Part shown: positions 29,099 to 38,494 of the stretch, in pieces
Layout: the number at the start of each line of letters is the position of its first letter
Position numbering within the stretch: position 1 is the stretch's first letter
Source: Puniceicoccales bacterium
GTDB taxonomy: Bacteria; Verrucomicrobiota; Verrucomicrobiia; Opitutales; UBA9783
Direction: 5' to 3'
Assembly (NCBI GenBank): GCA_031258545.1
Contig: JAIRMU010000015.1
Span: forward strand, 12,761 to 76,760
DNA: 64,000 nt
Program-made: the position numbers and the translations under genes
The notes under the pieces: generated by a model
Database searches by the model: none
The model's input: the letters and a program-made list of their open reading frames with translations, nothing else
Told to the model about the DNA's origin: nothing

Positions 29099-30727
29099 AT
29101 GGCTATCAATGCAACAGGGGTAACACAAGTTACCCATCCGATTACGAGTACACCAGGTGCAAATGATACCGGTAGCGTTACAAAAAATCTAACCTCTACT
29201 GCAGGCGTGCCCCAACAAGACCAAGCAACATCCGCATTATCGGATGCCACAAAGCAAAAACAAAGACAAATTGCCCTAACAAACCAACCCAAAACAGCTG
29301 TGGCACTTAATCTTTTGTTAGGTGAAGTACAGCAAGGAGTAAAGTATAAACCAGTGCAGATCGAAAAAACATTGTTGGAAGACATGCAACAAAATCCTCT
29401 TCGCAACCTTTTAGGTGCTAAAATAACTTTCAATATTGATCCTCAAAATTTACTACAGCAACAAAAAGACAACATAGATCATGATATAGCGTGCGTAGAA
29501 CGATGGCTGTCTGGCATTCCTCATTGTTCGCCCAAGCAACAAGGTAAACTATGTGCCGGACTGGGTGAACGAATAAATGGGTCCCCCTATCAACCTGAAA
29601 TATTGGCACTTCTGAATCAGCATGCTACAAATAACCCACAAATTGCAGCTACTAGAGATGCCTACGCAGGTAAACACAGCGAGCATATTACAGGAGAATT
29701 TTGTCAAAAATTAAGTGCAGTTTTAACAGAACCAACGCAGGAAACGCAGGTCACACCCATGCAGGCCAAACTTGCATTTATCGAGCAATTCAATGGGGCA
29801 CAAAGTTTAGAGAATAAAAGCGCCACCCAAATACGAAATGAACAGGCGGCTATAGAATCTCTATTAAAAAAAGATGATCTTACACCTTCAAATCGCGTAT
29901 TTTTACAACAGTTATCCTTGGCATACGAAATAAAGTTGAACGAAAATAATCCAAAGAAGATGGTAGAACTCGCTTCACAGTTCGCAGAACAAGAAGTACC
30001 ATTCTTGCGACAGATGGTTCAGGTGGCTCAAAATATTAGTCAAACGAACACTATGTCGGAGGCGCAAAAACAAAGAATATTGGATGCCCAAGATATAACT
30101 GATATATCAGCCAGGATATGCGATGCGATGTTCCCTAGAACAATGGAAGCTGTCAAGATGCCGAAGTTCAAAACTAAAGGAGATGCCTACTTAAAAATAT
30201 ATGGTAATCATGTAACGCAAGGAGTTATGCGTTTTAACAGCTTAATGCAAGAGATGGTAAAAAAAACACTAGCATCAGACCCTGAAACGGTAAAACGAGT
30301 AGGTGACGAGCTCAAAGGATATATAAATTTATTCTCATCGAATACAGCTTTATATACAGCCCGTGTCGAAGAAGCCTCTACAAAAGAATTACAATCCTTT
30401 AATACAACAGGCTTAATCAATGCAAACGACGGTAGTTTTGCCGAGTTTGACAAACAGCATTCACTGGACATCTTGAAGGGATTTTCAACAAAAACATTAC
30501 AATCTCTCGTTGAACGTGGTCAAGAACTCAGCAAGCAACCAAAGGCTAACACAACAGAGTTTCGAAAATCATTTGAAGTTGTTTTACGGTATGCACCTCT
30601 TCCGGAAGACCAGCGAGAGAGGCAACAAATGTTTGGGATCTTAACACAAGGTATTCAGTGCTTCCCCCAGAAAATGCAAAAGGAATTAGGCAGCATTTTA
30701 CAGAGTCGGATCACGCCATCTGCCTAA
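29099..30727 (+). CDS. Array gene E1 (542 aa): orphan paralog, candidate T3SS effector
   Basis: S/T/P-rich N-terminus, no Sec signal or TM segment; central/C-terminal module (TQIRNEQAAI...LFSSNTALYTARVEEASTKELQSFNTTGLI) is shared with E5. Confidence 0.75.
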   Translation: MAINATGVTQVTHPITSTPGANDTGSVTKNLTSTAGVPQQDQATSALSDATKQKQRQIALTNQPKTAVALNLLLGEVQQGVKYKPVQIEKTLLEDMQQNPLRNLLGAKITFNIDPQNLLQQQKDNIDHDIACVERWLSGIPHCSPKQQGKLCAGLGERINGSPYQPEILALLNQHATNNPQIAATRDAYAGKHSEHITGEFCQKLSAVLTEPTQETQVTPMQAKLAFIEQFNGAQSLENKSATQIRNEQAAIESLLKKDDLTPSNRVFLQQLSLAYEIKLNENNPKKMVELASQFAEQEVPFLRQMVQVAQNISQTNTMSEAQKQRILDAQDITDISARICDAMFPRTMEAVKMPKFKTKGDAYLKIYGNHVTQGVMRFNSLMQEMVKKTLASDPETVKRVGDELKGYINLFSSNTALYTARVEEASTKELQSFNTTGLINANDGSFAEFDKQHSLDILKGFSTKTLQSLVERGQELSKQPKANTTEFRKSFEVVLRYAPLPEDQRERQQMFGILTQGIQCFPQKMQKELGSILQSRITPSA

Positions 30728-30950
30728 CTTCGCCATGTGTTTAACGATATGCCTGCCTCCGAAAAACGGCTTCGATCGTAAGATGCCCGGCATAATGGGC
30801 ACATGCGGATAATGGCCTCGGAGAAAGTATTTGTCCATCCACAAGACTTTTTCTACTTTGATGGCATCTTCGCGTAAATTAAGAACTTTGTTCACGCACA
30901 AAATGGAAAATGATGCAAAATCGCATCCAAATTCTTGTTCTTTGGTCCAT
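30728..30950 (-). pseudogene. Decayed copy of the 5' part of the fabZ-like gene at 28536-28991
   Basis: Reads VNKVLNLREDAIKVEKVLWMDKYFLRGHYPHVPIMPGIL versus VDKILNLHEDVIEVEKVLRVDEYFFQGHYPHMPIMPGVL; frameshifts on both sides; DNA similarity continues into the promoter region. Confidence 0.88.
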
Positions 30951-31003
30951 GCCTTCCCCCTCTTTCTAGAGCAAATCGACAATAAATTACATCTTTACAT
31001 TTG

Positions 31004-31046
31004 TTGATAAAATTGTCTTGCAAATGATTTAAATTGTCTTTATTAC
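31004..31046 (+). promoter_or_regulatory. Array promoter copy 2 (degenerate -10)
   Basis: TTGATAAAATTGTC-TTGCAA-N17-TATTAC; ATG at 31058. Confidence 0.55.
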
Positions 31047-31057
31047 ATTACCCATAT

Positions 31058-37014: not shown

Positions 37015-37097
37015 CTAAAAACAAATTACGTTATTTAATCTCTTTTTTAATTTCTTTCTGCGACAAATCCCACGTAAAACACGTCTTTTCATATGCA

Positions 37098-37140
37098 TTG
37101 ACCAAATTGTCTTGCAAGTGTCGTAAATTGTTCTTAAACT
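37098..37140 (+). promoter_or_regulatory. Array promoter copy 6
   Basis: TTGACCAAATTGTC-TTGCAA-N17-TAAACT; ATG follows after 10 nt. Confidence 0.68.
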
Positions 37141-37150
37141 AAAAATTATT

Positions 37151-38494
37151 ATGTCTTCACTTGTAACAAATTTACCATCTTCTGATGCAACATCCGGACT
37201 CGAGTCATCTACCCCGCCCCAAGGTAAAAATGATAAGGGCCAGACAGTTACACAAAATCAAGCGCCTACGACGCAGGCTGCCCAAAAGCAAACGCTCAGC
37301 CTCAGCCCGATGATGAAGTCAAAGCTAGACAACCTCAATGCACTACGAACCAATCGTGAAGGTCAAAGCGGCGTGTACAAGTTTTTATTTGGGCGCCAAG
37401 AAAAGCAGGAAATGCAGATTCTACGACATAATATAAAAAAAGAAATTCACGAATTCCGGGGCGCAATTGATAAAGAAACAATGCAGGCTTTGGTGAATCT
37501 AGTTAAAGAGGCCCATCCAAAAGATAAAAGTTCAATATGCCGTCAAATCGCGCACGAATTTAGGAAGACCGAATGTAAGGGGGAATTGTTCCTTGTATTG
37601 CATGCAGCAATCGCAGAGGCGGGAAACGAGGATCAGAATCATATGAGTTCACTCTTGGATGCGTATGTACAGGGTAAAACGGCTAATACAGAAGAACTCT
37701 CAACCCGCGTTCAACAACTTATAAAGGATACAAAGATTCCAAGCACTTTTCCCGAAAATCAAGCAGTAGTTTCTGATTTATTGAAATTCATAGAACAGTG
37801 CGGTGATCATGCCAGGGATACGGACCTGTATAGCGCTTTACGCAACCAATTGCAAGCGTCTGTTGCTCAATCCTCTTCTCCCGAAAATCAGCTCCTACTA
37901 GACTTGTGTGAGAGTCGTGTGGCTATGGATGCAGGCAAGTTCGCCGAGTGTACAAAGAGAAATGAGGCACTTGTAGCAAACCTTGTTAGATATGGCGCAA
38001 CTCTGCAAAAAAATGGAGGCGATATTCAACAATTTAAACAAATGTGTAGTTCATATGCACATATGATGGCACGATTCCTTTCAATCCCAACTCCAACTCA
38101 TGGTCCTATAGGCGATAAACAAGAGGCAATGCACATGCTCAATTATAACATATATACAGCCTTGTGTTCCCTAGGATCGATCGACAATCTAGCTTCTTTG
38201 AATTCCCAGGCAAGATCGGTAAATGATTTCGTGGTCGTACATACAGTGGCTTGGGGCCATGTCCTCGAACAAGTGACTGGTGACGACATGAATGGGCTAA
38301 GAGGTGAGATGCTATGGTGTACACTGAATGCTGGCCCAGTAGAATCTACATGGCCCGATGCACTAGAGGCAAAACATGGAGAGTATACTGATAACATTTT
38401 GAACCCGAATCGTTTGGGTAATAGCGATGCGAAGGGGCCACCTCCACCTCTAGAAGCACTAGCCAGAGAATTGGGATATGACTGGACAAGATGA
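37151..38494 (+). CDS. Array gene E6 (447 aa): orphan paralog with a unique C-terminal domain, candidate T3SS effector
   Basis: GKNDKGQTVTQN motif; repeat-like units LVNLVKEAHPKDKSSI and LLKFIEQCGDHARDTDLYSALRNQLQASV. Confidence 0.72.
   Translation: MSSLVTNLPSSDATSGLESSTPPQGKNDKGQTVTQNQAPTTQAAQKQTLSLSPMMKSKLDNLNALRTNREGQSGVYKFLFGRQEKQEMQILRHNIKKEIHEFRGAIDKETMQALVNLVKEAHPKDKSSICRQIAHEFRKTECKGELFLVLHAAIAEAGNEDQNHMSSLLDAYVQGKTANTEELSTRVQQLIKDTKIPSTFPENQAVVSDLLKFIEQCGDHARDTDLYSALRNQLQASVAQSSSPENQLLLDLCESRVAMDAGKFAECTKRNEALVANLVRYGATLQKNGGDIQQFKQMCSSYAHMMARFLSIPTPTHGPIGDKQEAMHMLNYNIYTALCSLGSIDNLASLNSQARSVNDFVVVHTVAWGHVLEQVTGDDMNGLRGEMLWCTLNAGPVESTWPDALEAKHGEYTDNILNPNRLGNSDAKGPPPPLEALARELGYDWTR

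Follow-up and report, generated by a model that had tools for sequence, protein, structure and literature searches.

We describe a tandem array of six genes (A to F, positions 29099–38494) within a 64,000-nucleotide stretch of the genome of a termite-gut Puniceicoccales bacterium (Verrucomicrobiota; GenBank assembly GCA_031258545.1, contig JAIRMU010000015.1), the whole of which is referred to here as the window. The six genes are paralogs assembled from shuffled modules, each with its own copy of one upstream promoter-like element and its own Ser/Thr/Pro-rich N-terminal leader. Their products are most likely substrates, and probably effectors, of a Ysc-type type III secretion system (T3SS), components of which are encoded in the same window; we place the probability of this reading, which is circumstantial but the best available for these sequences, at approximately 0.55. 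The array family itself is new; systems of this type, that is, lineage-specific effector arrays evolving by birth and death, are already known.

The lengths of the open reading frames (ORFs; 542, 201, 318, 499, 814 and 447 amino acids (aa)), their shared orientation and their position between a fabZ-like gene and oppA had been reported in a first-pass annotation, and both coordinates and flanks were confirmed. All six ORFs are intact (201–814 codons) and on the plus strand, flanked on the left by minus-strand genes for gpsA, fabI and a fabZ-like dehydratase and on the right by a gene for an OppA-type SBP_bac_5 protein:

29099–30727, plus strand: gene A, 542 aa; leader of degenerate type, then a head module (aa 123–185; 29465–29653), A-type core and C-terminal module.
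31058–31663, plus strand: gene B, 201 aa; leader that includes the GKNAAGRSITSS motif, and a single head module at aa 120–198 (31415–31651).
31793–32749, plus strand: gene C, 318 aa; leader carrying GKGDTGRLVVQN, followed by modules at 32213–32419 and 32498–32704.
32940–34439, plus strand: gene D, 499 aa; leader, modules at 33180–33410, 33558–33677 and 33711–33926, and D-type C-terminal tail.
34570–37014, plus strand: gene E, 814 aa, initiated at GTG; mosaic architecture comprising leader, head (35125–35337), A-type core, module (36271–36486) and D-type tail.
37151–38494, plus strand: gene F, 447 aa; leader with GKNDKGQTVTQN, modules at 37415–37606 and 37715–37930, and divergent D-type tail.

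Three of these start sites involved a choice. Gene B could begin at a TTG (31034, giving 209 aa) or at an ATG (31058, giving 201 aa), of which the ATG is favoured because the TTG falls within the promoter-like element. Public gene calls for genes A (P0002, 470 aa) and E (P0001, 739 aa) begin later and omit the leader; the longer starts used here (29099 and 34570) are supported by the promoter-like element and by alignment of the leaders.

Paralogy was assessed by all-against-all BLASTP of the six proteins. Protein E (E814) aligned over aa 159–614 with aa 76–541 of protein A (A542; 48% identity over 483 aligned positions, E = 1e-129) and over aa 526–814 with aa 216–499 of protein D (D499; 59% identity, E = 3e-99), and proteins B, C and F were tied to the remaining array proteins by weaker links (E = 1e-6 to 1e-13). 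Iterated hidden Markov model (HMM) searches further recovered a module of ~70 aa ('WLxxvxQCSPKxQ..L...L..KL') in one to three copies in every array protein of the window and in 17 of the 19 proteins and fragments scanned from relatives, so that the internal modules posited earlier are indeed shared by all six. The proteins can be written as a short list of parts: the leader; a head, made up of a 'YEGQSGIGKYL'-like helix and the first module; an A-type core (A and E); extra modules; and a D-type tail (D and E, with a divergent form in F). At the DNA level, tracts of A and E, and of D and E, are 80–90% identical (for example, 90% between 33683–33982 in D and 36243–36542 in E), indicating recent recombination or gene conversion.

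Each array gene is preceded by its own element of ~70 nt, ending 6–11 nt short of the start codon:

29020–29092, plus strand: element copy 1, upstream of gene A.
30974–31046, plus strand: element copy 2, upstream of gene B.
31717–31785, plus strand: element copy 3, upstream of gene C.
32855–32929, plus strand: element copy 4, upstream of gene D.
34490–34563, plus strand: element copy 5, upstream of gene E.
37065–37140, plus strand: element copy 6, upstream of gene F.

In agreement with the first-pass annotation, which had assigned each gene its own copy of the element, a pattern search of the 64 kb returned these six copies and none elsewhere (0 matches in 100 shuffles), and nhmmer scored them at 48–70 bits, the next match in the window reaching 9.5 bits. 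Across eight Puniceicoccales loci, nhmmer located 25 copies, all on the array strand, each either preceding an array gene or lying at the end of a contig. The consensus of these 25 copies is AAACatAAATCataTcTTTACgTtcgTTgACAAAATTntCTTGCAAAtGncnTAAATTgTTTTTAaAC, with nearly invariant blocks ACAAAATT, CTTGCAAA and TAAATTgTTTTTA (conserved blocks were invariant in at least 90% of copies). Because the blocks have stayed nearly invariant while the coding sequences behind them have diverged to synonymous distances (dS) of 0.8–1.2 and protein identities down to 20–60%, the element is judged to be under strong purifying selection. Its sequence is best read as a putative promoter of the form TTGCAA-N17-TAAACT, in which the conserved blocks upstream of the −35-like hexamer would form a candidate regulator binding site; a generic sigma-70 scan gave the element no score, since only 8 of the 12 positions match.

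Several other interpretations of the element were tried and set aside. Sigma-54 and sigma-28 promoters were rejected by inspection, as spacing and key bases misfit both consensuses and the −10 box of a sigma-28 promoter would fall inside the coding region; an Rfam search of the element detected no structured RNA (no match at E up to 1). Nearly all window genes are without a recognisable Shine–Dalgarno sequence within 30 nt of the start, and its absence at the array genes is therefore uninformative about leaderless mRNAs. A regulon extending beyond the array was also rejected: in an exact-pattern scan of genome contigs, Puniceicoccales copies occurred exclusively within arrays and the other 12 matches were single, chance occurrences in unrelated taxa, and metagenome contigs likewise yielded single chance matches only. 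Two separate observations concern promoters and element copies. The window encodes a FliA/WhiG-type sigma-28-like protein (8051–8866, minus strand; TIGR02479, 188.3 bits against a cut-off of 189.6) and no flagellar genes, recalling Chlamydia, which has a flagellum-independent sigma-28. One related locus (L004, 5678–5742) holds an extra element copy after its last called array gene, ~500 nt before oppA and with no called gene behind it, which may mark the remnant of a lost or uncalled family member.

The N-termini of the six proteins set them apart from the rest of the window. Their first 50 residues comprise 42–62% Ser, Thr, Pro, Asn and Gln, versus 23 ± 6% in 44 other window ORFs (z = 3.0–6.1), and all six lack a hydrophobic signal core, a transmembrane segment (the 19-residue Kyte–Doolittle maximum is 1.35), a Sec or Tat signal, and RTX or Gly-rich repeats; the description of these N-termini as rich in such residues and free of Sec signals and membrane segments therefore holds. 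Likeness to a T3SS-type signal was judged by composition only. AlphaFold2 predicted disorder over aa 1–131 of E814 and aa 1–48 of protein F (F447). Among 19 intact N-termini from five genomes, the layout was the same: 'MS', then ~20 variable Ser/Thr/Pro-rich residues, then a motif, [VI]GK[DN]xxG[RH]x[VI]xQN..PTTG, at aa ~22–45. Eleven of the 19 carry this motif in strict form and most others in a degenerate one. It was kept across paralogs and metagenome-assembled genomes (MAGs) though the proteins are otherwise 20–60% identical, and six-frame scanning of the window together with eight related loci placed it at array N-termini only.

These features also bear on whether the proteins might leave the cell by another route (type IV, type I or type VI secretion, or vesicles) or be displayed on its surface, with a basic C-terminus as the possible signal. 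D499, E814 and their orthologs do end in conserved basic C-termini (…EMRQRAGGTN, …EMRRQAGGNN), the window contains a PilT-type ATPase and a pilin-like gene, and the 64 kb inspected leaves room for other systems in the genome. However, the C-terminal motif is found in two of the six window proteins and the N-terminal leader in all six, the window showed no component of type IV, type I or type VI secretion, and the proteins have neither the RTX or Gly-rich repeats nor the Sec or Tat signal expected for type II or pilus-type export, all of which makes export by such routes quite improbable.

The window also encodes part of a non-flagellar T3SS, together with a candidate chaperone:

20108–20380, plus strand: sctS, export apparatus.
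20380–21180, plus strand: sctT, export apparatus.
21185–22273, plus strand: sctU, export apparatus.
55130–55588, minus strand: CesT/SicP-like class I chaperone gene.
56549–56893, plus strand: sctY-like gene.
56890–58992, plus strand: sctV.

SctS (TIGR01403, 90.4 bits; cut-off 76.5), SctT (TIGR01401, 176.1; 163.05), SctU (TIGR01404, 418.9; 358) and SctV (TIGR01399, 899; 692) all exceeded the cut-offs of their NCBIfam injectisome models, and flagellar equivalog models stayed below theirs, on which grounds a flagellar export apparatus was rejected. The T3SS genes named in the first-pass annotation were thus upheld for sctS, sctT, sctU and sctV and, through Pfam CesT (51.1 bits; cut-off 22), for the CesT-type chaperone; the YscY-like assignment fell just short (NF052415, 69.4 bits; cut-off 70). 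Within its class, the chaperone remained below the NCBIfam SicP model cut-off (59.4 bits; cut-off 99) and matched SicP structure 1jyo at E = 0.003. The closest solved chain to SctV is LcrD-named (7alw_A, 824 bits), and this match, with the presence of a SctY-like protein, points to the Ysc family for the injectisome, consistent with the previous proposal of a T3SS-bearing bacterium of the Planctomycetes–Verrucomicrobia–Chlamydiae (PVC) group. In relatives, all five array-bearing genomes with checkable neighbouring DNA carry sctU or sctV: sctU adjoins the array in L002 and L045 (a fragment does so in L009), and SctV at 98–99% identity is encoded on contigs of array-bearing MAGs. As to gene order in the window, the T3SS genes fall in at least two clusters (20108–22273 and 56549–58992) scattered among housekeeping genes, and sctS directly follows an Opp-type ABC permease gene with ~260 nt between them (19846–20380) and no sctR upstream.

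To establish how widely the array family occurs, an exhaustive profile search was used in place of a word-indexed homolog search, which was insensitive for these low-complexity proteins (it missed the kinship of D499 and E814, and with it F447 found only itself). Across 1.84 billion representative proteins, every one of which was read, 22 proteins matched the profile at E up to 1e-3. Twelve of these (ten new proteins plus P0003 and P0005) were looked up and proved to be either 'hypothetical protein [Puniceicoccales bacterium]' or unnamed JGI/Logan metagenome proteins; the Puniceicoccales MAGs holding looked-up relatives were LBE99, LBJ78, LBH52, LBB19 and LBD69. The remaining matches were the window's own proteins or had lengths agreeing with array genes of fetched loci. 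MAG accessions of relatives (JAIRKR, JAISBA and JAITAV) lie within the range deposited from termite-gut metagenomes by Mies et al. 2024. The suggestion that the family is lineage-specific is accordingly borne out for the sources looked up, which are termite-gut Puniceicoccales MAGs or unnamed metagenome proteins.

All arrays with recovered flanks occupy the same locus, from the fabZ-like gene to oppA, and the number of genes they hold varies: two in L045 (LBH52), six in L001 (Gx481_bin184) as in the window, at least four in L004 and at least seven in Cc175_bin121, in which the array breaks the assembly into three contigs. The expected changing repertoire is therefore evident at one syntenic locus, pseudogenes included. 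The two L045 genes encode 752 aa and 167 aa (the second at 12354–12857). Disrupted copies comprise gene 1 of L001 (4800–5112), with a leader split by a stop codon; genes 2 and 3 of L002 (8546–9882), a frameshifted D-type gene lacking promoter and leader; P0003 and the next ORF, two stop-split halves of a 715–926-aa type (L002 10001–11881 with L003 1733–2413); and an F-type gene in L014 (125–242), frameshifted in the leader near a C-run. Some of these disruptions may be errors of short-read assembly. One further scar lies inside the window itself:

30755–30945, minus strand: pseudogene fragment of the fabZ-like 5′ end (~190 nt, with attached intergenic region), between genes A and B.

This fragment is 82% identical to 28795–28991, the longer segments 28780–29110 and 30740–31070 align at 82% identity, and a 94-aa ORF (30698–30982, minus strand) reads as a fabZ N-terminus. 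It is the scar of a tandem duplication that took in the left flank, including the fabZ/gene-A junction.

Array proteins change far faster than their surroundings. Between MAGs, flanking housekeeping proteins are 84–97% identical (one TPR protein, 77–80%), with non-synonymous distances (dN) of 0.02–0.08, dS of 0.42–0.60 and omega (dN/dS) of 0.05–0.14; SctU is 95–98% and SctV 98–99% identical. Array orthologs, by comparison, are 27–60% identical (those of gene C, in L001, L004 and L008, 55–60%), with dN of 0.31–0.65 and omega of 0.36–0.55, a rate of change at non-synonymous sites 5–15 times that of their neighbours. Tandem duplication, recombination among paralogs, deletion and pseudogenisation reshape the locus against a background of almost unchanged flanks and T3SS; the directly repeated elements may offer a substrate for unequal crossing-over, by which copy number would be altered. 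An alternative reading is decaying, non-functional DNA, in which the ORFs would be spurious or pseudogenised and lie in a recombination hotspot. Several copies in relatives are indeed disrupted, and omega among paralogs is ~1 in the recently homogenised D/E module. Elsewhere, omega among paralogs is 0.12–0.75 in most of the intervals compared, which shows that the array proteins are constrained and functional rather than junk; moreover, the six window ORFs are intact, the promoter-like element and leader motif are conserved across MAGs, and AlphaFold2 models contain confident helical domains (pLDDT (predicted local distance difference test) >85 over aa 180–290 of E814 and aa 60–210 of F447). 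We regard decay as highly improbable.

The bodies behind the leaders belong to no family that we could recognise, as had been stated at the outset, whether by HMM, PDB-sequence, structure or fold searches. Searches of Pfam, NCBIfam, PADLOC and PHROGs gave no match above curated cut-offs, and the only match of the family profile to PDB sequences was a designed repeat protein at a non-significant E of 0.003. In both AlphaFold2 models, helical hairpins are stacked into an all-alpha structure: E814 (mean pLDDT 63.6) is all-alpha beyond aa 131, with pLDDT of 85–93 over aa 180–290, and F447 (pLDDT 71.3; predicted template modelling score 0.70) forms a helical repeat after aa 48. Against the PDB, Foldseek returned generic alpha-solenoids only (importins, AP-2, PP2A-B56 and designed repeats; best E ~0.03, template modelling score ≤0.25). 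The most that can be said from these models is that the array proteins resemble scaffolds of a protein-binding type; their likeness to HEAT, ARM and TPR-like solenoids, which are similarly built of stacked helical hairpins, is architectural only, with no Pfam HEAT, ARM or TPR match.

Three more specific origins were considered in the same searches. Chlamydial DUF582-type effectors, suggested by the gpsA neighbourhood and GC content, were rejected (no Pfam match, and the organism is a Puniceicoccales bacterium), as was an origin from phage or defence systems (neither PHROGs nor PADLOC gave a match). For a polymorphic toxin/immunity array, neither a toxin or trafficking domain (Pfam, PADLOC) nor small co-oriented immunity ORFs between the array genes were found; furthermore, polymorphic toxin cassettes are promoterless, whereas each array gene has its own promoter-like element. 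A different possibility is that the proteins are T3SS substrates but are not aimed at a host, acting instead to tune the hierarchy of secretion, for example as exported regulators, plugs or decoys. The leader and injectisome evidence applies to this reading too, as does the lack of an effector-like catalytic or eukaryotic-like domain. Yet substrates associated with the apparatus are as a rule conserved products of single-copy genes within T3SS operons, whereas the array genes are multi-copy, hypervariable and set among housekeeping genes, and no Pfam or NCBIfam family, including those related to T3SSs, was found for their products; we consider such a role very doubtful.

If the array proteins are effectors, the parts described above could act together as follows. 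The first ~20 variable residues of the leader would serve as the secretion signal, and the leader motif as the docking site of a single multi-cargo class I chaperone, for example the candidate CesT/SicP-like protein encoded at 55130–55588. The helical-repeat bodies would bind host proteins rather than act as enzymes, the host being, should the bacterium prove to be an endosymbiont, a flagellate of the termite gut, and the element would be a promoter plus operator that co-regulates the family. A bolder version, which we offer as speculation and think rather unlikely to hold in full, is that the ~45-residue leader (variable tip plus motif) is a portable, sequence-defined tag for both T3SS targeting and chaperone docking, peculiar to a clade of termite-flagellate-associated Verrucomicrobia. 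With the promoter/operator cassette it would form a plug-in unit for new helical-repeat bodies and so generate a rapidly diversifying set of host-binding proteins in these putative endosymbionts.

A number of observations count against assigning the array proteins to the T3SS. The candidate chaperone gene is not adjacent to the array but ~17 kb away, and no element copy was found by the element HMM upstream of sctS/T/U, sctY/V or the chaperone gene in the 64-kb window, so that co-regulation of the array with the apparatus is not indicated. The apparatus itself is seen in part only and the genome is viewed through 64 kb, so that other export routes may exist. T3SS signals are normally not conserved in sequence, and a conserved leader motif could therefore serve some other purpose; in addition, one family member, the 167-aa copy in L045, is leaderless, with the element fused straight onto a D-type tail. 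No enzymatic or eukaryotic-like domain was recognised in the array proteins by Pfam or Foldseek, and the literature searched contained no secretion data on them. Finally, SctV at 65–81% identity is widespread in other Puniceicoccales and Opitutales MAGs and the family has just 22 members in the library searched, meaning that the T3SS does not require the array family; on the same distribution, the injectisome is old in the order and the array a recent addition in one narrow clade.

The main rival reading is a fast-evolving family that stays in the cytoplasm, for example of regulatory or scaffolding helical repeats, with the leader as a disordered interaction or degradation tag and the element as a plain promoter. 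No family, fold or domain links the array proteins to secretion, the element is not common to the T3SS genes, the leaderless copy in one relative still keeps its promoter, and non-secreted proteins can also have disordered N-termini. Even so, cytoplasmic housekeeping or regulatory proteins rarely evolve 5–15 times faster than their neighbours at non-synonymous sites or range from two to at least seven copies between near-identical genomes; the leaders are compositionally extreme by the standard of this genome, and the family is limited to a narrow clade that also carries the injectisome. We therefore judge this explanation unlikely, though deserving of serious consideration, and retain T3SS substrates, probably effectors, as the preferred assignment. 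Two findings that might have pointed away from that assignment, a confident match to a known non-secreted family and array-bearing relatives devoid of a T3SS, did not emerge: none of the searches returned such a family, and sctU or sctV was present in each of the five relatives that could be checked.

The proposed combination of a shared N-terminal delivery region with varied bodies has parallels among known effectors. In Salmonella, the WEK(I/M)xxFF effectors of pathogenicity island 2 (SPI-2; SifA, SifB, SseJ, SopD2 and others) have a conserved N-terminal translocation domain and differing C-terminal bodies. The array resembles this group in having several candidate effectors per genome, one putative N-terminal delivery region and varied bodies, and differs from it in that the motifs are unrelated, the Salmonella genes are dispersed and without a common promoter element, and their T3SS is of the SPI-2 rather than the Ysc type. 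In Ysc-family injectisomes, AraC-type activators (ExsA, LcrF/VirF) bind beside the −35 region and switch on the effector genes. Here, similarly, every candidate substrate gene has a conserved block directly upstream of a putative sigma-70-like promoter; in contrast, we saw no AraC-type regulator in the window, whose T3SS apparatus genes lack the element, and the element does not appear to match the ExsA consensus.

The closest analogue in kind appears to be the NEX1/NEX2 and PEX1/PEX2 families of the Parachlamydiaceae, which form tandem arrays with birth-and-death evolution and disparate copy numbers between relatives, and whose T3SS signals have been confirmed in Shigella by means of 20-codon Cya fusions (Domman et al. 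2014, PMC4209131). Like the array, these families are lineage-specific sets in PVC bacteria that have a T3SS; they belong to symbionts of protists and, as in the array, surround a shared N-terminal part with heterogeneous domain architectures. The differences are that NEX/PEX proteins contain F-box, BTB, RING/U-box and LRR domains, none of which was matched by Pfam in the array proteins, and that the array is far smaller (two to at least seven genes at one locus), is known from sequence alone and shares no homology with them. Within the Verrucomicrobiota, use of a T3SS by Verrucomicrobium spinosum is also reported (PMC3681970).

Within the Opitutales, a clade formed by GTDB families LL51 and UBA9783 has small genomes, is found in lower termites only and is regarded as a group of putative endosymbionts of flagellates, with the intranuclear Ca. 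Nucleococcus as a relative (Mies et al. 2024, PMC11257099). Termite-gut Opitutales and Puniceicoccales with small genomes are believed to be endosymbionts of flagellates, in a clade that includes Ca. Nucleococcus (PMC11257099, PMC8204192); neither source addresses the mechanism of host interaction, and PMC11257099 makes no mention of type III secretion. The first-pass term 'symbiont' for the present bacterium rests on this description of the termite-gut MAGs (PMC11257099) and is putative to the same degree. Against this background, an injectisome conserved at 98–99% together with a hypervariable, leader-tagged array would constitute the first concrete candidates for host interaction in the group. 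The leader and the promoter cassette provide simple handles, and the cassette could serve as a query for finding additional members in new assemblies; were the proteins not secreted, the locus would still illustrate clearly how birth-and-death evolution proceeds in a reduced genome.

Some minor features of the array and the window may be recorded. Gene F ends in a proline-rich stretch (38410–38494; …AKGPPPPLEALARELGYDWTR) that is absent from both F447 orthologs and could be a short linear motif or functionless. An LpxC–FabZ fusion of 451 aa is also encoded in the window (47520–48875, minus strand), making the 151-aa fabZ-like gene beside the array a second FabA/FabZ-type dehydratase; in relatives, the latter also matches ApeI/ApeP-like families. 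Elsewhere, a 377-aa ORF (59323–60456, minus strand) has a prepilin-type N-methylation motif that starts at residue ~198, its preceding ~195 residues resembling translated degenerate repeats, and just upstream of it lies a perfect octanucleotide tandem repeat, TGAGGTCT × 7.1 (60515–60571), which may be a slipped-strand phase-variation tract before a pilin or pseudopilin gene.

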